NCBI GenBank assembly: GCA_903901045.1
Contig: CAIUPP010000061.1
Span: forward strand, 38,374 to 102,373
Source of the DNA: an uncultured Planctomycetota bacterium
GTDB lineage: Bacteria > Planctomycetota > Brocadiia > CAIUPP01
DNA: 64,000 bases
Direction of reading: 5' to 3'
The notes beneath the pieces are model-generated. The model did no database searches. It saw only the letters and a program-made list of their open reading frames with translations, and was not told the origin of the DNA. Shown piece by piece: positions 6,528 to 25,381 of the stretch. How positions within the stretch are numbered: position 1 is the first letter of the stretch; the number at the start of each line of letters is the position of its first letter. Made by a program: the position numbers and the translations under genes.

Positions 6528-6540
6528 GGCTGTGAACGGA

Positions 6541-6680
6541 TTCAACTTTCAACATCCGACGTCCAACGTCCAACATTCAACGAACAACAAAAGAACGCCG
6601 CGCGCGGAACGTTGTTGTTTGTTGCCGTTACTTGAACGTTGAAAGTTGAACGTTGGATGTTGGACGTTGAATCCGTTGTC
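6541..6680. repeat. near-perfect ~65-bp-arm hairpin built from tandem heptamers (TTCAACG-type), 11-nt GC loop
   Basis: TTCAACTTTCAACATCCGACGTCCAACGTCCAACATTCAACGAACAACAA mirrors its reverse complement after the GCCGCGCGCGG loop. Confidence 0.75.
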
Positions 6681-11443: not shown

Positions 11444-11790
11444 GCAGACTCCTCAAGTCGCAAAGCGTCGCCGGGCATCAGCCCGACGCCGTCCAGGGCC
11501 CCGGCGGGCAATTCCAGCACGCACCGGGCGCCCCAGCAGGAGGCCAGCCGCCAGGGCTTCAGGCCAGGCGTCACTTTGCGCACCACCCAATCATCGTCCA
11601 GAAAGACCGCGTCGATCGCAAACCGCATGAAGAAAGTATGGATGCTCGCGCAGCGCTCGATCAACATGCCGCCGCCGGGGGGCAGACCGTCGCGCCCCAG
11701 CAGCCCGCGCATGCGCGCCGCCGTCGTCCGCGCTATCTCCACCCGGTCCGCAAGCACGCGGCCCGTGCGACTGTGGACCAATTTTACCAT
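11440..11790 (-). CDS. DUF192 (COG1430) family protein
   Basis: MVKLVHSRTGRVLADRVEIARTTAARMRGLLGR...MLIERCASIHTFFMRFAIDAVFLD matches DUF192. ATG at 11790. Confidence 0.65.
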   Translation of the reverse strand: MVKLVHSRTGRVLADRVEIARTTAARMRGLLGRDGLPPGGGMLIERCASIHTFFMRFAIDAVFLDDDWVVRKVTPGLKPWRLASCWGARCVLELPAGALDGVGLMPGDALRLEESA

Positions 11791-11792
11791 AG

Positions 11793-12310
11793 AATTGATA
11801 AGTGATGAGTGATGAATGTTGATTGATAATTGGTCATTGTTCGGCCTATTCCTGGCAAGACGTGACTGTGCGCACGGGGGCCCGATAGTTCGCCGTCTTC
11901 GAAGAGGCAACGCAGATCGCCGTCAACTCACCGACTTCCCGCAAGAGGCCCTCCATGCGTTTGGCCGGAATCATTTCAGCCGCCGCAATCAGGCGCAGCC
12001 AGTACTGGGCCTCGCGCAATTCTTTGACGACGATCTGCAGCTTGTGCGCAAAATCTCTCTTGCTCTCCGCGCCGCACGCTTCGCTGTAATTTGCCCCCGC
12101 AGAAGTGGCCGCGCGGAAAAGCTGAAGACTTACGTGCTGCGCCAGCGATGTTTTCGGCAGGGCCGAGGCAAGTCCGTAGGTTCGCGCGCCGAATCGAAGG
12201 AACCTCTCGCACAACTCCCTGCTATTCATCATCCCCTCGCCAACATGATAATTGTCGTTCTCCTGCTCCAATTATCAATCATCACTTATCACTCATCCAT
12301 TATCAATTCT
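11793..12310. repeat. cassette A: four-helix-bundle gene bracketed by ~40-bp inverted repeats made of tandem heptamers (GTGATGA/TTGATAA units)
   Basis: Left arm AATTGATAAGTGATGAGTGATGAATGTTGATTGATAATTG (~11793-11836). The reverse complement of the right arm (~12270-12310) is GAATTGATAATGGATGAGTGATAAGTGATGATTGATAATTG. Confidence 0.8.
11846..12232 (-). CDS. four-helix-bundle protein, '23S rRNA intervening-sequence protein' family (TIGR02436/PF05635-like), copy A
   Basis: Family core ATSAGANYSEACGAESKRDFAHKLQIVVKELREAQYWLRL; paralogous to copies B-D. Confidence 0.8.
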   Translation of the reverse strand: MMNSRELCERFLRFGARTYGLASALPKTSLAQHVSLQLFRAATSAGANYSEACGAESKRDFAHKLQIVVKELREAQYWLRLIAAAEMIPAKRMEGLLREVGELTAICVASSKTANYRAPVRTVTSCQE

Positions 12311-12311
12311 C

Positions 12312-13241
12312 TTATCTCGTCATCAATTTAAGAACAATCGGCCCGAAGATCATGATGAAAATCGTGGGGAAAATGAACAGGATGAGGGGCAGAAGGATCT
12401 TGACCGGCGCTTCCATCGCGAGCTTCTCGGCAGTCTGGCTGCGGCGCGTGCGCATCTGGTCGGCCTGGATGCGCAGGATCGGGCCGAGGCTGGAGCCGAG
12501 CTCGTCGGCCTGGATCAGCGCACTGACCACGCTGTTGAGTTCGGAAGCGTCCACGCGGCGGCTCAGTTCGCGCAACGCCTGCGCGCGCGTGCGGCCCAGC
12601 TGGATGTCGCGCACCGTCTGCCCCAGTTCCACCCCGAGCGGCCCGGGGCCGAGTTTCTTCACGATGCGCGCGAGCGCCTGCGTGAAGTCCAGCCCGGCCT
12701 CGACCGAGAGGGTGAGCAGGTCCAGCGCGTAGGGGAGCCCGCGGCGGATTTCGTCGCGGCGCGCTTTCACCCGCGAACGCAGCCAGAGCAGCGGCATGTA
12801 CATGCCGCCGAGGGCGAAGATGAGAATGATCGCGTTGAAGTTCATCCGGAGGTTGAACAGCGCTCCCAGGAGCCCCCCGCAAATCCCCCCCAGCAGCACC
12901 ATCCCGAGGAACTCGTCGGCGCTGACCCCTTCCGGGTAGGAGGCGCTGCGCAGTTGTTTTTCGGCCCAGATGCGAGGGGCGAGCAGGAAGGACTTCTCCG
13001 CCGGCCGGCCCGTGGCCATTTCGACGCGCGCCGAGACCCTCGCCAGCACGAACGAGAGCGCCCGCGCGGGGGGCCGCAGCAGCTTGAACAGCGGCGAGGA
13101 GGCCGGCCGCCCCAGGCTGCGGTACTGCCGCGCCTCGGCGCGGGCCCCCATCAGGGTGCGCGCCAGCGTATACGCCAGGAGCGCCACGCTCGTCCCCGCG
13201 CACAGCGCCAGCAGCATCGTCTGCAGCGATCCGTCTTCCAT
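12312..13241 (-). CDS. tadC: Flp pilus assembly protein TadC (T2SS-F domain)
   Basis: ATG at 13241 (MEDGSLQTMLLALCAG...). GspF-like domain and TM helices. Confidence 0.85.
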   Translation of the reverse strand: MEDGSLQTMLLALCAGTSVALLAYTLARTLMGARAEARQYRSLGRPASSPLFKLLRPPARALSFVLARVSARVEMATGRPAEKSFLLAPRIWAEKQLRSASYPEGVSADEFLGMVLLGGICGGLLGALFNLRMNFNAIILIFALGGMYMPLLWLRSRVKARRDEIRRGLPYALDLLTLSVEAGLDFTQALARIVKKLGPGPLGVELGQTVRDIQLGRTRAQALRELSRRVDASELNSVVSALIQADELGSSLGPILRIQADQMRTRRSQTAEKLAMEAPVKILLPLILFIFPTIFIMIFGPIVLKLMTR

Positions 13242-13246
13242 TCCGC

Positions 13247-14119
13247 TCACACCTTGATCGAAACGATTCGCCAGATCATGAACACTCCGATCGCCTCCAT
13301 CACCACCACGCCCGCCATCATCAGCCAGCCGAGCCAGTGCGTGAACATGGGCCGCATGAGCTCCGGGCTCCAGGCGTTCAGCGCCAGGAAAATCAGCACC
13401 GGCAGCAGGCCGATGATCACCCCCTGCATTTTCCCCTGCGCGGTCAGCGAGGAGATCTTCCCCTGGATGCGGTGGCGGTCGCGGATGGTGTCGGCGATGT
13501 TGTCGAACACCTCGGCGAGGTTCCCGCCCACCTCGCGGCTGATGAGGATGGAGGTGATGAGAATGTCCAGGTCCTCGCCCGGCATGCGGTCGAGCAGGTG
13601 CTGGAGCGCGTCCTCCATCGTGACGCCCAGGCGCATCTCCTGCACCATCAGGCGCATCTCCTGCCCCATCGGGTTCTCCGTCTCGCGCGCAATCAGCTCG
13701 AACGCCGCCGGCAGGCTGTGGCCCGCGCGCAGACTGTTGCCCATCGCCACCAGCGCGTCCTCCAACTGCACGCCGAACTTCTTGTCCCGCCGCCACTTGA
13801 GGAAGCGCACGATGATGGTGGGGGTCGCGAACGCCGCGATCCCCACGAAAATCGCCAGCACGACGTTCAACGTCATGACGGCGAAAATAATGAACACGAC
13901 CAGCGTGGAAAGGAAAGAGAGGTAGAGGATCTGCTGGACTGTCATGGTCAGGTACATTGCGTCGAGGGTGCGCGTGGCGCCGGAGACGTACTTCTCCTCG
14001 TAGGTCTTGAACCCCTTGGAGAGGAACGCCATCAGCCCGTACATCAGCAGCACGACGGCGAAGAACGCCGCGCCGAGGGTCACCACCGTCCAGGCCTGAC
14101 TCAGTTGGCCGGGGTTCAT
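13247..14119 (-). CDS. tadB: Flp pilus assembly protein TadB (T2SS-F domain)
   Basis: 290 aa polytopic protein with GspF-like domain, adjacent to tadC and cpaF. Confidence 0.85.
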   Translation of the reverse strand: MNPGQLSQAWTVVTLGAAFFAVVLLMYGLMAFLSKGFKTYEEKYVSGATRTLDAMYLTMTVQQILYLSFLSTLVVFIIFAVMTLNVVLAIFVGIAAFATPTIIVRFLKWRRDKKFGVQLEDALVAMGNSLRAGHSLPAAFELIARETENPMGQEMRLMVQEMRLGVTMEDALQHLLDRMPGEDLDILITSILISREVGGNLAEVFDNIADTIRDRHRIQGKISSLTAQGKMQGVIIGLLPVLIFLALNAWSPELMRPMFTHWLGWLMMAGVVVMEAIGVFMIWRIVSIKV

Positions 14120-14120
14120 C

Positions 14121-15755
14121 TCATTCCTCCACCGGCTTGAACAGTGCCAGGTCCACCGGCACGCCGCGCTCGCGCAGCTCCTGCACGAACTTCGGGATTG
14201 CGCCGGTGGCCGTCATCACCCCCAGCACGCGGCCATGCTCGTCGTATCCCTTCTGTCGGAACTCGAAGATCGGCTGCATGATGACCGTGTCCTGCTCCAT
14301 GCCGGTGATCTCGGAGATGTTGGTGATCTTGCGCGTGCCGTCCGGCAGGCGCGCGCCGTGGACGATGAGGCTGATGGCGGCGGTGATCTGCTCGCGGATG
14401 GCGCGGCTGGGCAGATCGAGGCCGGCCATGAGCACGAGCGTTTCCAGGCGCGCCAGGACGTCGCGCGGGCTGTTCGCGTGGAGCGTGGTGAGCGAGCCAT
14501 CGTGGCCGGTGTTCATGGCCTGGAGCATGTCGAGCGCCTCGCCGCCGCGGCACTCGCCGACGACGATCCGGTCGGGCCGCATGCGCAGGGCGTTGATGAC
14601 GAGCTTTCGGATCGGCACCTCCCCCTTCCCCTCGATGCTGGGGGGCTTGCTTTCCAGGCTGATCACATGCTCCTGCGCGAGTTGCAGTTCGGCGGCATCC
14701 TCAATGGTGATGATGCGCTCGGTCGATGGAATGAAGCCGCTGAGGATGTTCAAGAGGGTGGTCTTGCCCGAGCCGGTGCCGCCGCTGATGACGGCGTTCT
14801 TGCGGTTGACCACGCCGATCTGAAGGAAATCGGCCATCGCCTGCGAGAGCGAGCCGAAGCGGATGAGGTCGGTGGTGGTGAACGGGGTGCGCGCGAATTT
14901 GCGGATGGTGAGCGTGGGGCCGGTGAGCGCCAGCGGCGGGATGATGGCGTTCACGCGCGAGCCGTCGGCCAGGCGCGCGTCCACCATGGGGCTGGACTCA
15001 TCCACGCGCCGCCCGATGGGCGCCAGGATGCGCCGGATGACCGCCAGAAGCTGCTCGTTGCTGGTGAAGCGCTTGTCGGTCAGCTCCAGCCGGCCATGCC
15101 GCTCGATGTAGATCTTGTCCCAGCCGTTGACCATCACTTCGTCCACGGAATCGTCGGCCAGGAAATCCTCCAGCGCGCCCAGCGCGATGGCCTCGTCCAC
15201 GACCTCCTTGACCAGCGCCTCCGAGGTGAGCCAGGAGGGGCGCTCCGAGGCGAACTTGGCGACGGCGGCGCGGGCGGCGACCGAGGTTTTGCCCCGCACT
15301 TCCTCCGTGGTCTTCTCCGTCAGGTCGGTGTGCTTGAGGTCGAGAGAGGCGAGGATTTCATCATGGATCTTCTTCTTCAGTTCGACCGGCGTGCGGCGGT
15401 CCGGGCCGAGGCGGGGATGTTTCGCGGAACTGGGCGGCTTGCCCACCGCTTCGGGGGCGGCCTCGCCGGCATGGAAGGTGAGCGTGAACGGCCCGATGCG
15501 AATGACGTTGCGCTCCCCCAGCGGCGCCTGCCCGATCACCTTGGCGCTGTTGAGGAAGGTGCCGTTGCGGCTGCCCAGGTCGTGCAGCACGTAGGCCTTG
15601 TCCTCGTAAGCGACGATGCAATGCTCGCGAGAGATGCTGGGGTGGTCGAGCACGAGGTGGTTGACGCCGGCCTTCTTGCCGATCTTGAAGGGCAGCGGGT
15701 CCAGCGGAACGCTGCGCGCGGAGCCGCTTTCGTCTCGCAGGATCAGTACCGCCAT
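14121..15755 (-). CDS. cpaF: CpaF/TadA secretion ATPase with N-terminal FHA domain fusion
   Basis: FHA N-terminus (IGKKAGVNHLVLDHPSISREHCIV...LHDLGSRNGTFLN), then Walker A (GGTGSGKTT) and VirB11/CpaF motifs. Confidence 0.9.
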   Translation of the reverse strand: MAVLILRDESGSARSVPLDPLPFKIGKKAGVNHLVLDHPSISREHCIVAYEDKAYVLHDLGSRNGTFLNSAKVIGQAPLGERNVIRIGPFTLTFHAGEAAPEAVGKPPSSAKHPRLGPDRRTPVELKKKIHDEILASLDLKHTDLTEKTTEEVRGKTSVAARAAVAKFASERPSWLTSEALVKEVVDEAIALGALEDFLADDSVDEVMVNGWDKIYIERHGRLELTDKRFTSNEQLLAVIRRILAPIGRRVDESSPMVDARLADGSRVNAIIPPLALTGPTLTIRKFARTPFTTTDLIRFGSLSQAMADFLQIGVVNRKNAVISGGTGSGKTTLLNILSGFIPSTERIITIEDAAELQLAQEHVISLESKPPSIEGKGEVPIRKLVINALRMRPDRIVVGECRGGEALDMLQAMNTGHDGSLTTLHANSPRDVLARLETLVLMAGLDLPSRAIREQITAAISLIVHGARLPDGTRKITNISEITGMEQDTVIMQPIFEFRQKGYDEHGRVLGVMTATGAIPKFVQELRERGVPVDLALFKPVEE

Positions 15756-15860
15756 ATCATCCTCTCCCGTTCAGGCCGGTCATGGGTCCGCCGCGCCGGG
15801 GCGCAGCGTTCTTAAGCGCGGAGGCAAGGCAGAGCCTGGCCCCGGCGACGGCATGCGCCG

Positions 15861-16727
15861 CTACGGTTGCGGAACAAACTCTTCCAGCGACCCCTGCTTC
15901 TTCAGGCGCTCGTCTCGGTCCTTGCGGGCGGTGGCGGCCAGGTCGAGCAGGTTCTTGTCGCTGACATCCTGAGCCTCCGGGACGTTGGTGTCGGCGACCG
16001 GGCTCCGCAGGGACATGGTCAGCGCGCCATCCTGCTGCGCGTAGACCAGAAGGTTCGCCTCCAGCGGGCTGACCGCCACGGTGATGGTGCTGTAGCTCTT
16101 GACGCGCGCGCCGTTGCTGATGACGTACTCCTCGTCATGCGTGCGGCTGTCCACGGCGAGGATGCGCACGTTGTCCAGCAGCAGCACGGTGTGGCTGGCG
16201 GTAGCGCCGGTCATCGGGGCGCCCGCGGCGGCCGGGGCGCGAGCCGCCGCCCCTTGCTGCGTGCTGGTCGGGAACGTGCCGATGACGTCCACCCGGCTCC
16301 CGGGAACCAGGTTGCCGGCGACGCCGGTGACGTTATCCACGCGCAGCGTGACCGCGCGCTCGCCGGCGTTGAGCTTCTGCTCGAGCTTCTCCACCGGCTG
16401 CCGGAAATAACTCCAGCGCAGCGGCTCGCCGCGCTCCACGGTCTTGTTGATGACCTGCCCGAGGAACCGCTGGTCGTCGGCCATGATGTCGTCCGCCGTG
16501 ACGGTCGACTCGGTGACGATCTTGCCGGGGAGGTTGTCCACGTCCTTGTAGAGCATCTTCGGCAGGACGGGGGTGCCCGCCGTGATACGCTCGCCGGCCG
16601 CCGCGATGCGCTGCGGCTTGAACTTGTTCTGGAAGTCGTTCTGCCGGTTCTGAAGCACCTTCTGGAACCCATAGACGGCGACGAGGCCCAGGACCACGGC
16701 CAGGATCAAGGCGAGCTTGTTCTTCAC
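15861..16727 (-). CDS. cpaB: Flp pilus assembly protein CpaB/RcpC (SAF domain)
   Basis: Likely GTG start at ~16727 preceded by GGAGG. TM anchor (MKNKLALILAVVLGLVAV) and CpaB-type domain. Confidence 0.8.
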   Translation of the reverse strand: MKNKLALILAVVLGLVAVYGFQKVLQNRQNDFQNKFKPQRIAAAGERITAGTPVLPKMLYKDVDNLPGKIVTESTVTADDIMADDQRFLGQVINKTVERGEPLRWSYFRQPVEKLEQKLNAGERAVTLRVDNVTGVAGNLVPGSRVDVIGTFPTSTQQGAAARAPAAAGAPMTGATASHTVLLLDNVRILAVDSRTHDEEYVISNGARVKSYSTITVAVSPLEANLLVYAQQDGALTMSLRSPVADTNVPEAQDVSDKNLLDLAATARKDRDERLKKQGSLEEFVPQP

Positions 16728-17233
16728 TGCATTTCCTCCTTGGGGCCCGCTGCGGCGGGACCCCGGTTGGGGACGGAGGCCTGGCGCATGAGGGTGACGG
16801 CTGAGCCGCCTCCTGCGCCCGCCTCGACGATGCTTATGATACACCAACTGCCGGTAGGGTCTGCAAATGTCAGGGGCATCCCGCCGGGCTCCTCCATCAT
16901 GCCCGGCAAGCGTTGCGTTGTCCAGCCCCGCGCGGGCATTTCATGCCTGTAGAACTCCGCGACCGCGTCGGCGGACTCGCGGCTGACGTAGCGAACCAAT
17001 ACGCGCCCCGAGCCCGGCGCGGAGTTCAGGATGCCGGCCAGTTGCGATTCCGGCGGCGCGGGGATGTTCTCCAGCGCCCGCCCCGCCCTGCCCGTTGCCC
17101 CGCGCTCCACAATTGCGGGCAATAATCCGTAATGGCCGATGGCGAAAGACAAGGCTACGATAAGCCCGGCGCCTGCAAGACGGAAAACGATTTCTGACTT
17201 CTGATTCCTGAATTCTGATTTCTGATTTGCCAT
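16724..17233 (-). CDS. hypothetical small membrane protein; N-terminus (MANQKSEFRNQKSEI) encoded by heptamer-repeat arm
   Basis: 169 aa with one TM helix. Overlaps cpaB start by 4 nt. The first 15 codons are the TTCTGAT tandem repeat. Confidence 0.4.
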   Translation of the reverse strand: MANQKSEFRNQKSEIVFRLAGAGLIVALSFAIGHYGLLPAIVERGATGRAGRALENIPAPPESQLAGILNSAPGSGRVLVRYVSRESADAVAEFYRHEMPARGWTTQRLPGMMEEPGGMPLTFADPTGSWCIISIVEAGAGGGSAVTLMRQASVPNRGPAAAGPKEEMQ

Positions 17234-17702
17234 GTTTCACATGCTACGTTGACAATTCGTCCTGTCTGAGTGAGTCCGCATTCTTCCGCGACTTGTACGT
17301 GGTGACCGCGGCGACGAAGATACGGATCAACTGGTCTGCCTCGTCGAGCATCCCGGTCAGACGCTTTGCGGGCAAGAGTCCGGCTTCGGCTATCAGCCGC
17401 AGCCAATACTCGCTCTCGCGCAATTCCTTCAAAGATATCTGCATCTTGTGAAGGAAATCCTGGCGGCTTTCCGCCCCTGACGCCTCACAGTAGTTTGCCC
17501 CGGCGGAGGTGGCGGCCCGCATGAGTTGAAGGCCGACATGCCGCCCCGTGGCCGACTTGGTCAGCGCATTTGCCACATGAATACTTCGGACTCCGAATTG
17601 CAGCAGCCTCCGGTTCAAGTCGTGCTTGTCCATGCTGTGCGCTCCCGATGAAACCTCACACTGCTCTCCGCCCGAGGCACAAATCAGAACTCAGAAATCG
17701 TT
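17186..17702. repeat. cassette B: four-helix-bundle gene bracketed by inverted heptamer-repeat arms (TTCTGAT units)
   Basis: Left arm CGATTTCTGACTTCTGATTCCTGAATTCTGATTTCTGATTTG. Right arm reverse complement is AACGATTTCTGAGTTCTGATTTGTG (shorter arm). Confidence 0.75.
17244..17633 (-). CDS. four-helix-bundle protein, 23S-IVS-protein family, copy B
   Basis: Family core ATSAGANYCEASGAESRQDFLHKMQISLKELRESEYWLRL. Confidence 0.8.
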   Translation of the reverse strand: MDKHDLNRRLLQFGVRSIHVANALTKSATGRHVGLQLMRAATSAGANYCEASGAESRQDFLHKMQISLKELRESEYWLRLIAEAGLLPAKRLTGMLDEADQLIRIFVAAVTTYKSRKNADSLRQDELST

Positions 17703-18721
17703 TACCACCGTTTCCAAAGATTCTGCGTCGCATCATTCACCGCGGGCAGCGCGACGGCGCCAAGCAGGTCGGCGGCCTCTCCCAGCACCGCGGCGGAGGT
17801 GTGCCCTTGCTCGCCGGCGGCCAGCCGCGTTCCATTCCCCGTGACGTGGCCGGTCAGGTCCATCGTGAACTCCCACTGCGGGCGGCTCGTGGGGTTGGGG
17901 TACGTGCCGGTGATGTAATTTCCCAGCGTGGTGGGCGCCTCGTCCGTTGCCCGGAAGACGGAGGGGAAGTAGGGGGGGCTGTACGTGGCGCGCAGGTCCG
18001 CGTGGCGACGTTCGAGCCAGTGCGTGCCGCCGACGCCGTCGAAGGCGGATGCGATCCAGGCGGTGGTGTTGTCGATGACCGGCGGAGTGGCCTCGTCGGC
18101 GGTTACGAACCCGCCGCCGAGCTCCACTCCACCAGCTAGAGGGTTCAAGTAATGTGCGGGGGAAAATTTGTCGCCATATTCCGTATTCGAGACTTCCGTG
18201 ATCCCCTTGACCGCGTCCCAGACGAAGCTCTGCGTGGTCACCCCCAGCGCGTAATTCCAGAGGCTGACGGCAAGCCGCTCGCGGTCGAACGTGTCCGGCT
18301 GGCCGCCCCCCATCAGGGGGCCGGTCGTCAATTGGGTGGGGATTTCCTGGCGGTAATAGTCGTCGAGCTGGCTTGAGAGCTCGGACGCCTCCAGCGTCAG
18401 GTCTCCCTGGGCGGCCGCCGTCTGGCCGCCGCTGACGGGGCGGACATTGTCCGGCGTCCCCCCGCCGGAGGGCCAGAGCTTCATCAGCAACAGGTCCGCC
18501 GGCTGAGCCGTGGGCATCCAGACGGCAAACGTCGCCGCCTTGACGGCGCGCTGCCGGGTCAGCGTCGCATAGCCGAAGTAAAGCACCCCCAGCACGATCA
18601 GCATGTACAGCGGCATGACCAGCGCGGTTTCGACCATCGCCGTTCCGCGGAGCGAACGACAACGGCGAGCGTAGAGTGTAGAGTGCAGAGTGATGAGTGT
18701 AGAGCTATTCATTTTTCTCAT
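17702..18721 (-). CDS. tadE: TadE/TadG-like pseudopilin with long repeat-encoded leader
   Basis: Contains RGTAMVETALVMPLYMLIVLGVL (class-III signal / TadE-like N-terminus). Leader residues STLITLHSTLY are encoded by the GTAGAGT repeat arm. Confidence 0.7.
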   Translation of the reverse strand: MRKMNSSTLITLHSTLYARRCRSLRGTAMVETALVMPLYMLIVLGVLYFGYATLTRQRAVKAATFAVWMPTAQPADLLLMKLWPSGGGTPDNVRPVSGGQTAAAQGDLTLEASELSSQLDDYYRQEIPTQLTTGPLMGGGQPDTFDRERLAVSLWNYALGVTTQSFVWDAVKGITEVSNTEYGDKFSPAHYLNPLAGGVELGGGFVTADEATPPVIDNTTAWIASAFDGVGGTHWLERRHADLRATYSPPYFPSVFRATDEAPTTLGNYITGTYPNPTSRPQWEFTMDLTGHVTGNGTRLAAGEQGHTSAAVLGEAADLLGAVALPAVNDATQNLWKRW

Positions 18722-19167
18722 GGGCCATGTTCCTCTTCACAGTTACGACAGATCGGACCGCCATGGCGGTTAACTCACTGCATTCCCGCAAGGCGCCGTC
18801 GAGTTGTGCCGGCGGCAACAAACGGCTCTCCCTGGCAAGAGTCAGCCAGTAGTCCGTTTCGCGCAGTTCTTTGATGACAACCTGCAGCTTATGCACGAAA
18901 TCCGCACGGCTCTCAGCGCCCTTTGCCTCCCTGTAATTTGCCCCAGCCGACGTGCCCGACCGTAGCACCTGCTTGGCAATCACTCTGCCAGCCATGGTCT
19001 TGGGCATAGCCTGCGTAAGGCGAATCACCTCGATAGCGTAGGCCAGCAGGCGCTTGTCCAGCATGCCCTCACGTTCTGCCATCGCCATAACTCCCCGCTC
19101 AGGTCCTTGTCCTCGTCCTTGTTCACTCTGCATTCATCGCTCTGCACTCTACACTCTACGCTCGCCG
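18665..19167. repeat. cassette C: four-helix-bundle gene bracketed by inverted heptamer-repeat arms (GTAGAGT units)
   Basis: Left arm GGCGAGCGTAGAGTGTAGAGTGCAGAGTGATGAGTGTAGAGC. Right arm reverse complement is GGCGAGCGTAGAGTGTAGAGTGCAGAGCGATGAATGCAGAGTGA. Confidence 0.8.
18705..19088 (-). CDS. four-helix-bundle protein, 23S-IVS-protein family, copy C
   Basis: Family core RSGTSAGANYREAKGAESRADFVHKLQVVIKELRETDYWLTL. The 3' end overlaps the tadE-like start by 17 nt. Confidence 0.8.
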   Translation of the reverse strand: MAMAEREGMLDKRLLAYAIEVIRLTQAMPKTMAGRVIAKQVLRSGTSAGANYREAKGAESRADFVHKLQVVIKELRETDYWLTLARESRLLPPAQLDGALRECSELTAMAVRSVVTVKRNMAHEKNE

Positions 19168-21738
19168 TTAATGTTCCACCACATCGCTCATCTGCCTATT
19201 CCCATAGTCGAGAACCGGCGTGATCGGCTTGCCGTACTCGTCGCGGCGCTGGCTCATCTGGCGCATCTTGAGGGCGATGCTGGGGTCTCCCTGCCCGTTG
19301 AATTGGGTGGCCCAGCCGCTTGAATCGTAGCCGGAGGCGAACTGCGCGCTGAGCACCGTATCCCACAGGTAGGAGAGGGCGTTTTCGGTTTCGAGCGTGA
19401 TCGCCTGCCCCTGAATGATCTCGTCATCCAGGTCGTAATCCTGCATCTGATCGCGCGAGGGATAGAGCTTTGCCGTCGCGCCCGCCATGTACAGATTGTT
19501 CGGGTCCTGCTCGACCCAGTTTGCTCGATCCGCCTTGCCGCCGAACTGGTACCGCGTTCCGCCGCCGTCGTCCGGAACGCCCACGCGCGAGCAGGAGATG
19601 GCGACGTACCCCCAGGGCGGCTGTAGCGCCTGCGGGAAGAGCATGGGGAGGTCGGGTTGCTTGTAGACTCCGACATTGACGCCATACTTGAAGAACTCAT
19701 CCGTCAGCACCAAGGGGTATCCGGCCGGTGCCGCGGGGGCGTTGCGGAGAATGTAGGAATCGTACCGGTGAACGCGGCTGTCCAGAAAGTCGGTGTCCGT
19801 CCATCCACGCTGACCGTCGGTGATGGACAGATCATAGGAGCGCGGGTCCGGCGGGTTGATGCGACCGGAGGGGATATCCGCGATGAAGACCCGGATATCC
19901 GTGGCCCCGTCGCGGTTGTTATCGTAACCGCCGCAGACTTTACATACTTCCTTGTGCGTCCCCTGGTTGGGATCATTGGGATCGTTGGGGACATCCACAA
20001 CGCCGCTCCCGCCGCAGCCCAAGGGAGGCTCCGGGCAGGGCTCCGTCTGGTAGTAGGCGTCCTCCGGAGGGTCCTCATTGGGCTGGAGGATCGCCAGGCT
20101 GCCGGGCGGACGCAGCGGATAGGTGTGCCGCCAGAACGGCTCGCGGGGACCCGCCGTGCCCGTATTGTCCGGGATCGGATTGAACCAGGCCGTCCACGCC
20201 GGCAGTTGGTTCCCGGAGATGCCGCGGTCGCCGAAGGCATGGGTGTAGACGTACCGATTCATATTCCTTTCGCGGGACAGCATCGCCCCGGAGGTCTCGT
20301 GATCGTATTGCCATTGCTTGAGTCCACCGTGCTCCGGGACCACTTCGGTAAGCTGCTGGCGCGACCAGACCTGCTCGGTCGGGTCGAACCACTTGCGCCA
20401 GCGGCCGTCCGCGTCACCGGCGGTGAGGCTGAACCCGCCCGCCGTGACGCTGAAGGAGTTCGGGTCGAAGCCGTGGACGCCGATCGTGACCGGGCCCAGA
20501 GTGGTCGAGATGGTCGGGGGGTCGCTCAAGGTCAAATGGGCGTGGCCGATGGTGACCTGGGTGGGGTCCCCGATGGTCGCGCTGGCGTCGCCGGGGAAGT
20601 GGATAACGTTGGTGACGTTCATCCGCACTTCCACCCCGGCGATCGTGGTCGTGTTGCTGGTCATGTCGGTGTAGGAGTGCGCGGCGTTGTCCCAGAGGTA
20701 CAGGTGGCCGTTGCCCGCGTTCTTGAAAGTCTGGGAAAGGTTGCCGCAGGTGACTTTCGTCCCCTCCTTGGTCCCGTCGCCGTCCATGTCCACTTTCTCG
20801 AAGGAGATAGTCGGCAGGGAGGGGCCGCCGTTCGCGGCCTGTCCCCAGACCACCCAGCCGAGGTCGTCGGTCTTGACCAGGTAAATCTCCTCGGTCAGCG
20901 CCCCGTTGGTGTAGAAGCTGATCTTCCAGCGGTTGGGGGATTCCTGGCTGATGATCACCTCGGTTTCGGTGACCCCTTCCAGGGAGTACAGGATGTGCCA
21001 CTGCCCGTCCACCAGCGTCACCTGGATCATCTCCTTGCTGCCGCCGGTGAGGTTGGTGACGCGCCAGCCGTTGCCCAGTTGCTCGATGCTGAAAGAGATG
21101 AGACTCTCCGGGTAAGGGAAGAGCCGCTGGCTGGGGAAGACGCTGAGGCGCTCTCCGCCGGCGCGCGTGCCGATGGCGAACATCTCCTCGGCGAGCAGGC
21201 GCGGGGTGAGGATGGCGACGGCGTTCTCCGTCTGCGAGAGCTGCACCATCAGGCTCTTGGCCTGCGGCAGGGCGGTGTTGGCGAGGTCCCATGCCTGCCG
21301 GTGCGCCATGACGGCCGGGCCGGAGGCAACGCCGCCGGTGCGGATCAGTTCCATGCGCGCGGCGACGCCGGTGACGTTCACATCCACGGCATACTTCAGC
21401 GAGTTGTAGTACGTCTGCGCCATGGCGCTGTTGATCCAGCCGATGGCGCTCAGGCTGTTCGCTTCCACCATCGCGCCGGAGTACGCCGCCGAGTCCGCCG
21501 CCACCTGCACCCGCGTGCGCCCCTCGATGATCCGCCCCAGGTTGTACACCAGCGCCACGAACCCCACCAGCACGATCAGGCTCGCCGCGGCGAAGATAAT
21601 CCCCTGGCCGCGCTCGTCGCGCAGGAAACGGCGAAAACTGAGAACTGAGAACTGGGAACTGAAAGTTGCGAAAGAACGGCCCCTCCGCGCCATAGCGCGG
21701 TGGACCGGAATCGGCTCGTTATTCTTGCATGCACTCAT
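19168..21738 (-). CDS. tadG: large TadG-like pilus-assembly/pseudopilin protein (856 aa)
   Basis: N-terminal RRFLRDERGQGIIFAAASLIVLVGFVALVYNLG (TadG N-terminal domain type). The leader contains repeat-encoded FSSQFSVLSF. Confidence 0.65.
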   Translation of the reverse strand: MSACKNNEPIPVHRAMARRGRSFATFSSQFSVLSFRRFLRDERGQGIIFAAASLIVLVGFVALVYNLGRIIEGRTRVQVAADSAAYSGAMVEANSLSAIGWINSAMAQTYYNSLKYAVDVNVTGVAARMELIRTGGVASGPAVMAHRQAWDLANTALPQAKSLMVQLSQTENAVAILTPRLLAEEMFAIGTRAGGERLSVFPSQRLFPYPESLISFSIEQLGNGWRVTNLTGGSKEMIQVTLVDGQWHILYSLEGVTETEVIISQESPNRWKISFYTNGALTEEIYLVKTDDLGWVVWGQAANGGPSLPTISFEKVDMDGDGTKEGTKVTCGNLSQTFKNAGNGHLYLWDNAAHSYTDMTSNTTTIAGVEVRMNVTNVIHFPGDASATIGDPTQVTIGHAHLTLSDPPTISTTLGPVTIGVHGFDPNSFSVTAGGFSLTAGDADGRWRKWFDPTEQVWSRQQLTEVVPEHGGLKQWQYDHETSGAMLSRERNMNRYVYTHAFGDRGISGNQLPAWTAWFNPIPDNTGTAGPREPFWRHTYPLRPPGSLAILQPNEDPPEDAYYQTEPCPEPPLGCGGSGVVDVPNDPNDPNQGTHKEVCKVCGGYDNNRDGATDIRVFIADIPSGRINPPDPRSYDLSITDGQRGWTDTDFLDSRVHRYDSYILRNAPAAPAGYPLVLTDEFFKYGVNVGVYKQPDLPMLFPQALQPPWGYVAISCSRVGVPDDGGGTRYQFGGKADRANWVEQDPNNLYMAGATAKLYPSRDQMQDYDLDDEIIQGQAITLETENALSYLWDTVLSAQFASGYDSSGWATQFNGQGDPSIALKMRQMSQRRDEYGKPITPVLDYGNRQMSDVVEH

Positions 21739-21815
21739 GGTATTGTTACCTCAATCTCAACATCGCGCCATCTTTCAGTTCTCAGTCTTCAGTCTTCAGT
21801 CTTCAATTCTCGCCG
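21630..21815. repeat. 'empty' heptamer inverted-repeat pair (GAGAACT units) whose ~105-bp loop holds only the tadE-stop/tadG-start junction
   Basis: Left arm GGCGAAAACTGAGAACTGAGAACTGGGAACTGAAAG. Right arm reverse complement is GGCGAGAATTGAAGACTGAAGACTGAAGACTGAGAACTGAAA. Confidence 0.7.
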
Positions 21816-21822
21816 TCCTTCA

Positions 21823-22407
21823 TCACTCGCCCCACGGATGCGCCAGCACGCAACTGCCGGTCATCAGCCAGTGCGCCGCGCCTCCCCACTTCGAGCGGTC
21901 CACGTCGAGGCCGGGGGTCAGGTCGCCCAGCGCGTAGAGGGCGTCGCCGGCGATTGGCACATTCAATTCGTAGTCATGCGATACGTCGGCGTGGATCACC
22001 GGCTGGCCGTTGACCGAATCGGGGTAGACGTTGACGTCGGTCTTCAGTTCCGCCGCGGCGCTGCCGGGGAGCGTCCCCCAGCCGGGCAGGGTGATGGTGT
22101 CGTTGGCGACGACGCCGGAAGTTCCCGTGATGCGGCTCAGCGGGATCAGCGCCGCGCGCTTGCAGGCGGTCGGGTCGATCGCCGGCGACTGCGCCAGCCC
22201 CGCGCGCGCCGCGCAAAAAGCGCTGTACTCGATCACCTGCTGCGCGATGAACAGATGGGCCAGTTGAATGATGACCAGCGTGATCAGCAGTTGGAGCGGG
22301 AAGATGATGGCGTATTCAACCAGCGCCTGCCCCGACTCCGCGCGGGCGGCGCGGCGAGAACTGAAAACTGAGAACTGAAAACTGAGAACTGAGAGTTGGC
22401 GGTTCAT
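21823..22407 (-). CDS. tadE: TadE-like pseudopilin
   Basis: RRAARAESGQALVEYAIIFPLQLLITLVIIQ is a TadE N-terminus. Leader MNRQLSVLSFQFSVFSS is encoded by the repeat arm. Confidence 0.75.
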   Translation of the reverse strand: MNRQLSVLSFQFSVFSSRRAARAESGQALVEYAIIFPLQLLITLVIIQLAHLFIAQQVIEYSAFCAARAGLAQSPAIDPTACKRAALIPLSRITGTSGVVANDTITLPGWGTLPGSAAAELKTDVNVYPDSVNGQPVIHADVSHDYELNVPIAGDALYALGDLTPGLDVDRSKWGGAAHWLMTGSCVLAHPWGE

Positions 22408-22824
22408 CGCGCAGCTCCTTTGTTCGACTTCGCCGTCACCACGGACTTCACGCCTATGGAGATCAGTTCATTCACCTCACTGGCAATGCCGTCCAGGCGA
22501 GCCGGCTTCAACAAATGGGCGTTGCGGCAAAGCTCAATCCAATAGAGCGTCTCGCGCAGTTCTTTCACTACAATCTGCATCTTGTGCGCAAAGTCGGCGC
22601 GACTCTCGGCGCATCTCGCCTCGCAGTAGTTGGCGCCAGGCGACGTGCCGGATCGCAGCAATTGCAGTCCCACATGCCGCCCCGCCGCCGTCTTGGGCAG
22701 CGCGTTCGTCATCGCGATGACCCTCACGGCCAGTTCTTGCAGGCGCTCACCATAATTGCCGCTCTGCGCCACGTTTTATCCTCTCAGTTCTCAGTCTTCA
22801 GTTCTCAGTTTTCAGTTCTCGCCG
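22353..22824. repeat. cassette D: four-helix-bundle gene bracketed by inverted heptamer-repeat arms (GAGAACT units)
   Basis: Left arm GGCGAGAACTGAAAACTGAGAACTGAAAACTGAGAACTGAGAG. Right arm reverse complement is GGCGAGAACTGAAAACTGAGAACTGAAGACTGAGAACTGA. Confidence 0.8.
22404..22772 (-). CDS. four-helix-bundle protein, 23S-IVS-protein family, copy D
   Basis: Family core RSGTSPGANYCEARCAESRADFAHKMQIVVKELRETLYWIEL. GTG start. Confidence 0.8.
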   Translation of the reverse strand: MAQSGNYGERLQELAVRVIAMTNALPKTAAGRHVGLQLLRSGTSPGANYCEARCAESRADFAHKMQIVVKELRETLYWIELCRNAHLLKPARLDGIASEVNELISIGVKSVVTAKSNKGAAR

Positions 22825-22825
22825 T

Positions 22826-23374
22826 TTACTTCAGCAGCAACTCCATCCACGCCCACACAACCCCGATCCCGATGGCCACGCCGTACGGGATCGTCGTCGC
22901 CGGCGCGCCGTCGGCCGGCTTGGCGCGAAGAGTGAAGAGGGCGCGCAGGCTGGATTTGAGGCCGGACAGGAGCCGTCGCTGCCAGATCAGCACGCAGACG
23001 GCAATGGCCGCGCCCACGAGGGCGGCATACATCAGCGCGATGATCACGAAGCCGATGGCGCTGACGCCCGCCGCGCCCGCGAAGGGGGCCAGCGCGCCGA
23101 CGGCCCCCATCATCTTGACGTCTCCCGCGCCCAGGCTGCCCATGAAATAGACCACCAGCAAAATGCCCGCCCCCACCCCCGCCGCCAGCGCCGCGTTGCC
23201 GAGGTGCCAGAAGCCCGGCTGGTTCGTGTCCATCAGGTACGCGCTGGCCAGCCCGATCGCTAGCGCCCCCAGCGTCACCCAGTTATAAAGCTTCCCGCGC
23301 GCCATGTCGGTGTAGACGCACACGACCGCCAGCGCGAGAAGACAACCCTGCCGAACCAGTTCTATGGTTGCCAC
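22826..23374 (-). CDS. tadV: prepilin peptidase (A24 family; CpaA/TadV)
   Basis: 182 aa polytopic protein with the conserved GAGDVKMMGAVG motif. Confidence 0.85.
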   Translation of the reverse strand: MATIELVRQGCLLALAVVCVYTDMARGKLYNWVTLGALAIGLASAYLMDTNQPGFWHLGNAALAAGVGAGILLVVYFMGSLGAGDVKMMGAVGALAPFAGAAGVSAIGFVIIALMYAALVGAAIAVCVLIWQRRLLSGLKSSLRALFTLRAKPADGAPATTIPYGVAIGIGVVWAWMELLLK

Positions 23375-23406
23375 AGATCAACCCACCTCAATGTTCCTGC
23401 GATAAT

Positions 23407-23456
23407 GTGGCGCGGGTTATCCAACCCGCGGTCATCGTGCGTTCATTCCGCTTTCG
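23407..23456. repeat. family-4 element copy a (GCGGGTTATCCAACCCGC hairpin + CATCGTGCGTTCATTCCG tail)
   Basis: GTGGCGCGGGTTATCCAACCCGCGGTCATCGTGCGTTCATTCCGCTTTCG. Confidence 0.7.
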
Positions 23457-23603
23457 TCTCTCGCGGGCCTGCGGCCCGCGCCATATCGGCTTCAAGACCG
23501 GAAGCCCCGCGCGCTCCACTTCAAACGAATAACTCCGACCGCTGCGGGCGCAGAGGCCGGAGTTATCCATGCGACAACGCCCGATCGGGCAGCGGACGCG
23601 CCG

Positions 23604-23852
23604 TCAGAACGTATTGACGTTCTTTCCAGAAGTGGCGGTGTCCGCCTCGCTGCTCTTGTCCTGAACGGTCTGTTCCGTGCCGGTGCCGATCCGCTTGACT
23701 TCGCTGCCGAACAGCGCTCGGATCTGGTCCCCGAAGATCAGGATCACGGCGATGGAGCTGACCGCCACGAGCGCGACGATGATCGCGTACTCGGCCGTCG
23801 TCTGTCCCTTCCGGCTCTTCAACCCGCTCACCTTCATAATCCACTGACGCAT
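23604..23852 (-). CDS. flp: Flp/Fap pilin
   Basis: Flp motif G|QTTAEYAIIVALVAV after a short basic leader. Confidence 0.8.
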   Translation of the reverse strand: MRQWIMKVSGLKSRKGQTTAEYAIIVALVAVSSIAVILIFGDQIRALFGSEVKRIGTGTEQTVQDKSSEADTATSGKNVNTF

Positions 23853-23885
23853 TTCAGTACCCTCCAAAAGTTAACTCTTAAGACC

Positions 23886-24107
23886 CTATGGAATCGGAAG
23901 ACAAATCAGCGACGCCACATCCTGAAAGAAGTTCAGCAGCGCCGCCTGCATCGCCTCGATGGAAACCATCACCACGATCACCGTCCAGAACGCCACCAGC
24001 GCGTACTCCGTGGCGGCCTGCCCGGTTTCGTTCCGGAGCAGCGCCGACGGGTCGGAGCGCAGGTGAAGCATGGTCAGCAACTCGTGCATGGTCTTCTCTA
24101 ACTCCAT
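23886..24107 (-). CDS. flp: Flp/Fap pilin (second copy)
   Basis: Flp motif G|QAATEYALVAFWTVIVV. Confidence 0.8.
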   Translation of the reverse strand: MELEKTMHELLTMLHLRSDPSALLRNETGQAATEYALVAFWTVIVVMVSIEAMQAALLNFFQDVASLICLPIP

Positions 24108-24305
24108 TATAAGCCTGTCGCCGCAACGTCACTAGGACTATCTTCGCAATGCCCGTGCCATTGGCGCAGCGAAATCGCAAGCGGCTGCTATATTTCATGT
24201 TACAGTATTTGGCCGGTTCGCGCCCTTGGTGAAATGTCGCCGCACACCACAGCCCGCATGTAGGGAAATCCGCCACCGTAAACCACTTGCGCCCTTGCGT
24301 TTGTA

Positions 24306-24327
24306 GGGGCAAGGCATGCCTTGCCCC
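24306..24327. repeat. family-1 REP-like 22-bp perfect palindrome GGGGCAAGGCATGCCTTGCCCC
   Basis: Exact palindrome. At least 7 copies in the window: 28088, 34868, 38206, 40405, 55339 and 56642 (the last two degenerate), plus the GGGGCGCAGCATGCTGCGCCCC variant at 28005. Confidence 0.85.
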
Positions 24328-24437
24328 TGCGCCAGCACCCCCACGATGGCGCGCGCTTTCCCGCAAAAGCGCGGCGCCCTTCGCTGCCCCGATACAGCGA
24401 GCGGCCAGTCCGCGTCCCGCGCCGCAGGCGCGGGGAA

Positions 24438-24545
24438 AAGAAAGCGGAAAGAACGCACGCTGATTGCGGGTTTGATAACCCGCGCTACATCGGCCTCACG
24501 AACCGGAAGAACTGCACGGTAATCGCGGGTTGGATAACCCTCGCC
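24438..24545. repeat. family-4 element copies c and d (reverse orientation), tandem, upstream of flp genes
   Basis: Reverse complement of 24438-24490 is GTAGCGCGGGTTATCAAACCCGCAATCAGCGTGCGTTCTTTCCGCTTTC. 24500-24545 is a more diverged copy. Confidence 0.7.
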
Positions 24546-24558
24546 ACACCGCCTGCTT

Positions 24559-25113
24559 TCAGCGGCCACACTCCACCTGGCTCCGGTAGAGGGAGCTGCC
24601 GGCAGCATCAATCGCGACGATGGCGGGGAACTCCTGAACCGTCATCTCCCTAAGCGCCTCGGGGCCCAGGTCTTCGTACGCGATCACCCGGGACGCCGTG
24701 ATGCACTTCGCCAGAAGCGCGCCCGCCCCTCCAGTGGCGGCGAAGTACACCGCGCCGTGGCGCTTCATCCCCTCGATGACGGCCGGGGAGCGATCCCCCT
24801 TGCCGATCATCCCGCGCAGCCCCAGGGCGATCAGCCGCGGGGCGTAGGCGTCCATGCGATAACTCGTGGTCGGACCCGCCGCGCCGACCACCTGCCCCGG
24901 CGCGCCGGGCGTGGGGCCGACGTAATAGATGATCGCGCCGCGCAAGTCGACCGGCAGCGGCTCGCCGCGGTCGAGCGCGGCGACCAGCCGCTTGTGCGCG
25001 GCATCGCGCGCAGCGTAGAGGATTCCGCTGATCCGCACCGGCGTCCCCGCCGTCAATCGGCGCGCCGCCTCCTCGCTGAGCGGGGGGGTGATCCTGACGG
25101 GAGCGCTATCCAT
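24559..25113 (-). CDS. class-I fumarate hydratase / L(+)-tartrate dehydratase beta subunit
   Basis: 184 aa matching the FumA C-terminal / TtdB catalytic domain (GPTTSYRMD..., KGDRS...). Confidence 0.8.
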   Translation of the reverse strand: MDSAPVRITPPLSEEAARRLTAGTPVRISGILYAARDAAHKRLVAALDRGEPLPVDLRGAIIYYVGPTPGAPGQVVGAAGPTTSYRMDAYAPRLIALGLRGMIGKGDRSPAVIEGMKRHGAVYFAATGGAGALLAKCITASRVIAYEDLGPEALREMTVQEFPAIVAIDAAGSSLYRSQVECGR

Positions 25114-25274
25114 ACTTCTCCTCTTCCCTGCTGCGCCGATCTATTCACCGCGGAGGCGCGGAGAACGAACGACGCCGTCTTTCATCTCTCAGTTCTCAGT
25201 CTTCAGTTCTCAGTTCTCGCCGTCCTGCGCATCTCCGGGGTGAAAAGGGCAAACGCCCGTCTCGGAGAGAACGT

Positions 25275-25324
25275 GTAGCGCGGGTTATCAAACCCGCGAT
25301 CATTGTGCGTTCTTTCCGATTTCC
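25275..25324. repeat. family-4 element copy b, in the 268-bp spacer between fumarate hydratase alpha and beta genes
   Basis: GTAGCGCGGGTTATCAAACCCGCGATCATTGTGCGTTCTTTCCGATTTCC, preceded at 25185-25225 by a solo CTCAGTT heptamer-repeat arm. Confidence 0.7.
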
Positions 25325-25381
25325 TTTCCCCGCGCCTGTGGCGCGGGACGCGGACTTGATAGTCCGCGCTACATACGCGGC

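Follow-up and report, generated by a model that had tools for sequence, protein, structure and literature searches.

A tad/flp pilus operon lies on the minus strand of a 64,000-nucleotide (nt) stretch of DNA from an uncultured Planctomycetota bacterium (contig CAIUPP010000061.1; the whole stretch is termed the window, and all positions refer to it). The operon includes two flp genes, tadV, tadE, a TadG-like gene, a TadE-like gene, a gene for a 169-amino-acid (aa) membrane protein, rcpC, an FHA-fused tadA/cpaF, tadB, and tadC. Between positions 16724 and 22407, it holds four inverted-repeat pairs of tandem heptamers, named E3, E4, E5, and E6. The locus raises the question of how a repeat with an inverted partner comes to stand inside the reading frames of pilus genes, whether it is translated there, and what becomes of the peptide. 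The initial annotation proposed that the repeats are translated as unusually long leaders of three pseudopilins and as the start of a small membrane protein, that the mature proteins lack the repeat-coded segment if the prepilin peptidase TadV removes the leaders, and that this would be an economical way to tolerate a structural RNA element inside coding sequence. In this study, we consider it likely that intervening sequence (IVS)-type elements are seated between the tad genes, that the start codon in the loop of each element is used, and that the downstream arm is read into the N-terminus of the host protein.

Repeat arms in the reading frames of tad genes

The upstream arm of a pair is called arm L and the downstream arm is called arm R, in the sense (minus) orientation; all operon genes and elements given below are on this strand. 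In E6 (arm L, 22781-22824; arm R, 22352-22395), the arms are 98% complementary over 44 nt. Arm L, with the heptamers GAGAACT/GAAAACT, begins 1-2 nt past the tadV stop codon and has TGA in all three frames. Arm R has no stop in any frame and forms codons 5-19 (LSVLSFQFSVFSSRR) of tadE (21823..22407), a pseudopilin gene (PF07811) whose product begins MNRQLSVLSFQFSVFSSRR and has the site G26↓QALVEYA (the arrow marks the predicted cleavage). E5 (arm L, 21769-21815; arm R, 21633-21668; 36 nt, 81%) is a hairpin without a gene. Its arm L stands directly 3' of the tadE stop codon, its loop of about 100 nt contains ATG 21738 and ATG 21693, and its arm R forms codons 24-36 of the TadG-like open reading frame (ORF) (19168..21738; PF13400), which contains SFATFSSQFSVLSFRRF. 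In E4 (arm L, 19126-19176; arm R, 18654-18704; 51 nt, 88%), arm L begins at the tadG stop codon and consists of the heptamers GAGTGTA/GAGTGCA, with TAG stops; arm R forms codons 6-23 (SSTLITLHSTLYARRCRS) of the gene for a TadE-like pseudopilin (17702..18721), which begins MRKMNSSTLITLHSTLYARR and has the site G26↓TAMVE. In E3 (arm L, 17678-17706; arm R, 17182-17229; 25 nt, 92%), arm L (TTCTGAG/TTCTGAT, with TGA stops) overlaps the TAA stop of the TadE-like gene (17702-17704) with its 5' end, and arm R (AATCAGA type) forms codons 2-18 (ANQKSEFRNQKSEIVFR) of the 169-aa protein gene (16724..17233). This protein begins MANQKSEFRNQKSEI, and its arm-coded tail precedes a transmembrane helix. The four N-termini quoted in the initial annotation were found exactly as it gave them, and its observation that each downstream arm lies within the early codons of the next gene was confirmed.

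An arm contains approximately 3.4-5.7 heptamer copies. Six heptamer families occur in the window, one per pair (GAGAACT, GAGTGTA, GATTTCT, CAATTAT, CAACGTC, and TTCGCAA), and the arms are complementary within each pair. RNA folding of E6 predicted an unbroken 44-base-pair (bp) stem around a 385-nt loop (z = -8.2 vs shuffles), and the value for E5 was z = -4.9. Six contigs from independent samples agree at every base of the arm regions that they cover, so the arms are no assembly artefact. In the regions covered, these near-identical contigs showed no variation in heptamer copy number and thus no sign of phase-variable slippage. E6 arm R (22352-22401) and E5 arm L (21766-21815) are also 86% complementary, and pairing between these two could instead enclose the tadE ORF, which makes two stem sets possible; hairpins that neighbour each other and share a heptamer family were also seen in the related loci L015 and L028 and seemingly in L016. 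A conserved clamp, (A)ACGGCGAG...CTCGCCGT(T), stands at the outer ends of many arms (window 18654-18662, 21633-21641, and 22352-22360, and also in L016 and L028). In each of the five coding cases examined, the CGCCGN that ends arm R encodes Arg-Arg and gives the basic residues just before the hydrophobic helix.

ATG 22407 is the sole in-frame ATG, GTG, or TTG 5' of the conserved G26↓QALVEYA of TadE, and ATG 17233 is the only start of the 169-aa ORF. The loop of E5 holds the two starts of the TadG-like ORF, ATG 21693 and ATG 21738, the latter preceded by GAGGT at a distance of 9 nt; from the arm to the conserved RRFLRDERG↓QGIIF motif with its membrane helix, there is no further in-frame start. 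The TadE-like ORF has ATG 18721 and ATG 18712, both in the loop; the next one, Met29, lies past the predicted cleavage site and is Leu or Ala in orthologues. The initial annotation had suggested a test of whether an internal GTG/TTG start after the arm is used, and no ATG, GTG, or TTG was present in frame from arm R to the conserved motif in the window genes. All four downstream ORFs run through arm R, which lies inside the sole plausible reading frame of each. The arm-coded peptide has a 7-aa period that differs between loci while arm complementarity is kept, in line with the earlier claim that the repeat dictates the leader sequence.

Related operons were used for comparison. A TadE protein search gave 41 relatives, and 8 genomic and 52 metagenomic loci were fetched; the named ones were metagenome-assembled genomes of Planctomycetota or Candidatus Brocadiia, the nearest with a TadE identity of 32-44%. 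All junctions of the syntenic block from tadV to rcpC were analysed, in about 20 related metagenomic operons. Twenty-nine distinct arm pairs were obtained, at the tadV-tadE, tadE-tadG, tadG-TadE-like, and TadE-like-169-aa junctions, with one upstream of rcpC. They form either cassettes with a four-helix-bundle (4HB) gene (loops of 385-475 nt) or empty hairpins (loops of 24-220 nt), and their heptamers are highly varied, yet the same gene junctions are occupied. At about 26 of 28 independent junctions with arms, the stretch from arm R to the conserved motif had no plausible in-frame start; the start at these was in the loop (22 junctions) or in or upstream of arm L (4 junctions). At the tadV-tadE junction, an ATG at most 20 nt 5' of arm R was in the TadE frame in six loci and in the other two frames in none.

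The distribution of stop codons was compared with random heptamers of the same composition. Of the 29 pairs, 28 have an arm R without a stop in any of the three frames (null 0.78, P about 0.003). Only 6 have such an arm L (null 0.60, P < 5e-5), and in 12 pairs arm L has a stop in every frame. Among 4HB cassettes of other phyla with arm R in the 5' untranslated region (UTR), at least four have stops in that arm (read by eye). Nearly all TadE relatives of the G↓QA(L/I/V)VEYAI clade have a heptad-periodic stretch in the leader, with differing sequences such as SALCTLHSAFCT, FGFSILQFAIF, SSFTIHYSLL, and PAFSIRHSSFVI. Arm-bearing leaders are 19-39 aa long, and those of arm-free orthologues 6-18 aa (e.g., MKHEKG, MWRCDMRDERG, and MDAKKSVWKCEDG), apart from one distant relative, L013, with 25 aa. 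Arm R mostly ends 6-12 codons before the cleavage site (2 in L021), a distance of about an entire arm-free leader, as expected if the element occupies the position of the original start codon.

Four-helix-bundle genes, cassette identity, and movement

The arms are the terminal stems of IVS-type elements located in an mRNA operon, and here the initial annotation was incomplete: it described the arms without the cassettes and hairpins to which they belong, the PF05635 genes, and the start codon (sometimes with a Shine-Dalgarno sequence) that these elements bring. The loops of E3, E4, E6, and a further element, E2, each carry an ORF of 122-142 aa that matches PF05635, "23S rRNA intervening sequence protein" (S23p, Avd-like), with 53-67 bits in Pfam (cut-off 33.8), and TIGR02436, "four helix bundle protein", with 77-85 bits (cut-off 24). 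The 4HB gene of E6 (22404..22772) overlaps the tadE ATG with its TGA stop as ATGA (22404-22407), and AAGGAG (22415-22420), 7 nt 5' of ATG 22407, lies inside its 3' end. The gene of E4 (18705..19082, the longest ORF extending to 19133) overlaps ATG 18721 by 17 nt at its 3' end, and that of E3 (17244..17633) has its TAG stop 10 nt 5' of ATG 17233. A full cassette thus has the order arm L, PF05635/TIGR02436 gene, start codon, and arm R, and some copies are hairpins without the gene. The 4HB genes are all co-oriented with the tad genes. Their ratio of nonsynonymous to synonymous substitution rates (dN/dS) is 0.08-0.11 in three pairs, indicating strong purifying selection; it is 0.11 for the E6 gene against the L015 copy and 0.11 for the E4 gene against its L016 orthologue, with 93% identity.

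E2 (11791..12310) has CAATTAT/CAATCAT arms, a 4HB gene, and a cassette-borne ATG. It stands at the junction of tadC and a DUF192-like gene (so named by N-terminal resemblance, not profile-tested). Its ATG opens an upstream ORF (uORF) of 17 codons (MTNYQSTFITHHLSILW) across arm R (11789-11842), and the TAA of this uORF overlaps the DUF192-like ATG as ATGGTAA. This overlap suggests termination-reinitiation coupling.

The assignment to the IVS type was made because the IVS of Coxiella burnetii 23S rRNA has the same anatomy: an S23p (PF05635) ORF, a 28-bp terminal stem, and tandem heptamers (GACAGAT), with an RNase III cut mid-stem at the first repeat (PMC4990558). IVSs with an S23p/PF05635 ORF are found in 23S rRNA of Coxiella burnetii and Leptospira (PMC4990558). 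The window elements share with them the long terminal stem, heptamers in the stem region (upstream of the ORF in Coxiella), the PF05635 ORF in the loop, and the sense orientation to the host transcript. Unlike rRNA IVSs, which reside inside a helix of 23S or 16S rRNA, they sit between protein-coding genes, their 3' arm is in the coding sequence of the next gene, and they seem to supply the start codon of that gene. The Coxiella IVS ORF is reported to be decaying and probably untranslated (PMC4990558), unlike the 4HB genes of the window with their dN/dS of about 0.1. An Rfam scan of the whole window found no rRNA and no family matching the arms; its sole match was one tRNA. A promoter and terminator scan of 11500-25500 gave nothing above chance, and the hairpins are not intrinsic terminators.

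At gene boundaries, tandem heptamers are also known in the form of TAACTGA direct repeats in Beggiatoaceae, cyanobacteria, and Bacteroidetes, where they mostly end just 5' of start codons (MacGregor, 2015, PMC4679880). The likeness extends to the asymmetry of the strands, the forward one having stops in three frames and the reverse one being open. The reverse TAACTGA sequence is occasionally translated at protein termini (LSVISYQ), to be compared with SVLSFQF in the window, and the (G/A)AACTGA family of the window is one base off TAACTGA. Unlike the window repeats, TAACTGA sequences are direct repeats, are not reported as inverted pairs, and are described without mention of a 4HB gene (PMC4679880). 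The window heptamers vary by pair, form inverted pairs, and have their downstream copy within an ORF, which sets them apart from the TAACTGA type. Beyond the papers on Coxiella rRNA and on TAACTGA, no description of heptamer-armed 4HB cassettes in mRNA operons or of their translation was found in a literature coverage that was incomplete, so that earlier descriptions may exist. Rickettsia palindromic elements are selfish hairpin repeats that are inserted in frame and translated as an extra peptide segment. They are internal, at surface loops, and have no gene, start codon, or heptamers, unlike the window cassettes.

The movement of one cassette family is seen in the relative L016, whose tad proteins are 66-85% identical to those of the window. 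The 4HB protein of the L016 cassette upstream of the 169-aa gene is 85% identical to that of window E2, which is at a different junction and has the same CAATCAT family, and only 49% identical to that of window E3, which is at the same junction. DNA homology between the L016 cassette and E2 runs from the first base of arm L to the last base of arm R, with unrelated flanks, and includes the ATG and arm R (ACAATGAC(C/A)AATTATCAATCA). In L016, the ATG of the cassette continues in frame into the 169-aa protein (MTNYQSSIINHQLSI, followed by VLIAVV...), with an arm-coded N-terminus unlike that of the window. In this family, arm L, the 4HB gene, the ATG, and arm R thus move or are replaced as a unit, and the host N-terminus is cassette-derived because the unit with its ATG aligns between the two junctions. 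In other families, the start codon would likewise belong to the cassette, given its constant position, no more than 17 nt 5' or 11 nt 3' of the 4HB stop.

Compared with the host genes, the cassettes turn over rapidly. The tadV-tadE junction holds a 4HB cassette (CAGTTCT) in the window and an empty hairpin (CTCCGCA) with both arms inside the ORF in L016, where TadE is 79% identical to that of the window. E2-type arms are approximately 84-85% identical at a synonymous divergence (dS) of 1.15, and arm R is only part of a uORF there; these arms are therefore constrained at the nucleotide level. As regards a MITE or transposon identity, terminal inverted repeats are present, no target-site duplication was visible at the two insertion sites of the E2-type cassette, and there was no transposase. 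An integron attC identity was rejected, as the arm ends (AACGGCGAG...CTCGCCGTT) misfit the RYYYAAC/GTTRRRY core by eye and the operon has no integrase ORF.

Fate of the repeat-coded peptide and competing explanations

Flp-type leaders of 25-26 aa fall within the known range. Both TadE (G26↓QALVEY) and the TadE-like protein (G26↓TAMVE) have Flp-type sites and match PF07811 from residue 26, and the two flp genes of the window have sites of the same type (G↓QTTAEY and G↓QAATEY). The leaders resemble class III prepilin signal peptides (Flp/TadE/TadF) in ending in Gly before a hydrophobic helix with Glu at +5, with a peptidase gene in the operon: tadV (22826..23374), of the cpaA type (PF01478), encodes the enzyme expected to remove leaders. 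They differ from the usual class III leaders in being lengthened by a repeat-coded, fairly hydrophobic stretch of 12-15 aa and in seemingly beginning at a cassette-borne ATG. A prepilin leader peptide stays cytoplasmic, is of variable length, and is cut after Gly or Ala by the prepilin peptidase (PMC10191384). TadE and TadF are minor pilins of the Tad system, and TadG is a component of a membrane sub-complex and no pilin (PMC10191384). The maturation of TadE and TadF by TadV is attributed in that source to Tomich et al. (2006).

The earlier proposal on leader removal was accordingly qualified gene by gene. For TadE and the TadE-like protein, removal of the arm-coded stretch by TadV is plausible and reasonable because the stretch precedes a G↓xxxxE site and the peptidase gene is in the operon; the predicted cut in TadE is after the G codon at 22330-22332. 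Whether TadV cleaves the TadG-like protein is uncertain; a run of about 24 hydrophobic residues comes after its conserved (D)E(S/R)G↓QG, and position +5 is not Glu (G↓QGIIF). The sequence of the 169-aa protein contains no prepilin cleavage motif; removal is unlikely there, and ANQKSEFRNQKSE would remain as a cytoplasmic tail. Of the three pseudopilin leaders that had been claimed, two thus belong to TadE-type proteins, and the third belongs to a TadG protein, which is no pseudopilin in standard nomenclature. "Unusually long" is apt in comparison with the arm-free orthologues. What had been called economical tolerance of a structural RNA may, by analogy with rRNA IVSs, instead be a competition between translation and RNA processing.

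The proposed course of events is as follows. Arm L follows the stop codon of the upstream gene and is stop-rich, and arm R is open in every frame. Ribosomes would initiate in the loop, at or beside the 4HB stop and possibly coupled to 4HB termination, and would then unwind and translate arm R, placing a repeat-dictated stretch of 12-15 aa on the N-terminus of the host protein. The insert would fall where arbitrary sequence is tolerated, in the cytoplasmic leader before the cleavage site or in an N-terminal tail before an Arg-rich segment and a hydrophobic helix. TadV would remove the stretch from the two TadE-type proteins; it would probably stay in the 169-aa protein and possibly in the TadG-like protein. 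A cassette that holds the start codon could not be lost cleanly, which would explain its persistence at junctions across the clade. If the stem formed and were cut by RNase III, translation and processing would compete, and this may keep the downstream minor-pilin genes low or may be merely tolerated.

Several points weigh against or limit this course of events. A start after arm R is present at two junctions, in L008 (upstream of rcpC) and in L031 (upstream of the TadE-like gene). The freedom of arm R from stops is not confined to the frame used; with every frame open, openness by itself does not prove translation, and the start codons carry the argument. These start codons are themselves deduced by comparing sequences, and a recognizable Shine-Dalgarno sequence precedes only about half of the loop starts. 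Among three homologous cassette pairs, 1-2 double changes per stem were counted beside many one-sided changes; repeat copy number and register slip in the alignment, and the counts speak neither for nor against compensatory change. The arm-coded peptides are fairly hydrophobic, which is atypical of the prepilin leaders described in PMC10191384. Gene callers chose downstream starts (841 and 311 aa) on two near-identical contigs. If RNase III cut the stem as in rRNA IVSs, it would sever the loop AUG from the ORF, and translation through the arm would then need mRNA that is uncleaved or translated co-transcriptionally.

Another explanation is that the arms are mainly an RNA processing or attenuation device, in which RNase III would cut the 25-50-bp stems, free the 4HB mRNA, and inactivate or destabilize the downstream message, translation of arm R being incidental and confined to uncut molecules. 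We hold this to be possible rather than probable; it is compatible with the use of loop starts proposed above and could be the selected function. In its favour are the likeness to the Coxiella IVS, in which RNase III cuts the stem at the first heptamer, the great stability of the predicted stems, the constant co-orientation of the 4HB genes with the operon, and the absence of terminators or promoters above chance at the hairpins scanned; neighbouring arms can, moreover, pair alternatively around tadE. Cleavage of mRNA-borne copies is, however, assumed by analogy with rRNA IVSs, and it would strip the only start codon from conserved, intact, and syntenic tad genes and so cannot be complete. The stop depletion of arm R and the in-frame loop ATGs show selection for read-through.

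It is unlikely that translation begins after the arms at a non-canonical or overlooked start, with the arms in the 5' UTR and the long ORFs as annotation artefacts. The shorter versions called on some contigs (841 and 311 aa) are what such a start would give, long ORFs arise easily where arm R is open in all frames, and in other phyla the ATG of the downstream gene does follow arm R. Between arm R and the G↓xxxxE or RDERG motif, however, the window genes and about 26 of the 28 related junctions have no in-frame ATG, GTG, or TTG, and the Met29 of the TadE-like protein is unsuitable for its position and lack of conservation. A prepilin requires a leader ending in Gly (PMC10191384), and the loop ATGs are frame-biased 6:0:0. 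Selection of the repeat-coded peptide itself, for instance as a Ser/Phe/Leu-rich leader motif with the nucleotide repeat and its inverted partner secondary, appears still less credible. An S..L.S.F-like look is common to the leaders of many TadE homologues, and the Arg-Arg encoded at the end of arm R was constant (5/5), but arms of this kind also stand in non-coding positions (every copy of arm L, and the window elements E1, E7, and E8), and the peptides are wholly unlike between heptamer families (e.g., NQKSEIR vs SVLSFQF). The heptamer-armed 4HB cassettes of other phyla are not translated into the neighbouring gene, and E2 arm R, which is read only as a uORF, is about 84% conserved at a dS of 1.15. 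The long near-perfect inverted repeats around a segment with a start codon would also suit a DNA inversion switch, in which arm recombination flips the loop and the start codon and gives phase variation of pilus genes. Of all the explanations, this one has the least to commend it and was rejected for constant orientation: the 4HB gene is co-oriented with its flanking genes in 13 of 13 evaluable Planctomycetota cases and in 12 of 14 plasmid-borne cases, the six near-identical contigs have identical arms (where covered) with the same gene order and strand, and no recombinase gene is nearby.

Cassettes in other phyla and further repeats in the window

Fourteen plasmid-borne 4HB genes (L067-L080) were sampled from five phyla, namely Cyanobacteriota, Chloroflexota, Spirochaetota, Bacteroidota, and Bacillota; the hosts were Planktothrix, Chlorohelix, Gloeocapsa, Nostoc, Pseudanabaena, Treponema, Bernardetia, Monoglobus, Euhalothece, Chondrinema, Anabaena, and Dolichospermum. 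Flanking inverted arms were present at all 14 and were strong and heptamer-periodic at 12 (inverted-repeat score >=35, period-7 score >=0.59), those of L071 and L073 being weaker. In a control of 400 random pseudo-genes, 0.25% reached an inverted-repeat score of 32 with a period-7 score of 0.55. Each gene has its own heptamer (e.g., AATTCAA, GATTTAC, GGAAGTC, TAATTCG, and TGGTCAC). In most cases, the genes on either side share one orientation, and the setting is often a defence operon (DISARM/BREX, type I restriction-modification, DUF1156-HEPN, and beside cas1). In the five plasmid cases inspected closely, arm R precedes the downstream ATG. The 4HB cassette with a heptamer stem therefore seems to be general, and translation of arm R appears to be special to the tad operons studied.

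We know of no function of the PF05635/S23p/Avd-like family outside diversity-generating retroelements since the rRNA IVSs were described. The IVS architecture is found here living in mRNA operons, under strong purifying selection, and moving between gene junctions as a defined unit. In one lineage, the element would give pilus genes their start codon and part of the leader peptide, so that a selfish structured element would be accommodated in a protein part that is discarded after targeting. A broader and tentative proposal is that PF05635 genes with heptamer stems are pan-bacterial mobile, transcript-resident cassettes of which the rRNA IVSs are the first-noticed subset, and that their usual place would be between operon genes. 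In this Planctomycetes-Verrucomicrobia-Chlamydiae (PVC)/Planctomycetota lineage, they might have captured start codons and leader coding, such that expression would depend on the cassette and compete with RNase III and the prepilin peptidase would erase the peptide. The elements also matter for annotation, since starts downstream of such cassettes are called inconsistently and repeat-coded N-termini will resemble low-complexity artefacts. On near-identical contigs (L001-L005 vs the window), gene callers give the TadG-like protein 856 or 841 aa, the TadE-like protein 339 or 311 aa, and the E4 4HB protein 125, 127, or 142 aa.

Three further elements with heptamer arms lie outside these junctions. 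E1 (6540-6672) is an empty CAACGTC-type hairpin with a nested GC-rich mini-hairpin in the loop. Its neighbours are a universal-stress-like ORF and an ORF with a UvrC-resembling N-terminus (neither profile-tested). The stop-rich arm of E1 is the downstream one, which ends about 10 nt before the downstream ATG, and L027 has this heptamer family at its tadV-tadE junction. E7 (25187-25218) is a solo upstream-type arm of the GAGAACT family, as in E5 and E6, in the gap that separates the genes for the alpha and beta subunits of fumarase; what is left of the usual outer flank (GACGGCGTCGTTCG) follows it, and the partner arm is absent. E8 (35937-36845) consists of inverted arms (TTCGCAA/GATTAGC type) around a whole RlmB-like 23S rRNA 2'-O-methyltransferase gene (35988-36794, minus strand). 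Its cargo is thus not a 4HB gene, and a promoter-like TTGACG...CATATT (by eye) is included.

The FHA fusion in the operon was seen in the TadA/CpaF-type ATPase (14121-15755), which has N-terminal FHA and YscD-like domains according to precomputed Pfam matches of an identical contig. A second, unrelated repeat family of approximately 55-83 nt with a small hairpin (GCGGGTTNGATAACCCGC) was found at 23405-23460, 24407-24549, 25273-25374, and 40308-40326. It gave 8 matches vs 0.4 expected, clustered in intergenic DNA near the flp and fumarase genes. Finally, Tandem Repeats Finder detected an array of period 9/18/27 (GCGCCGGTC, about 15 copies) at 50464-50662, within a 701-aa ORF (49006-51111, minus strand).

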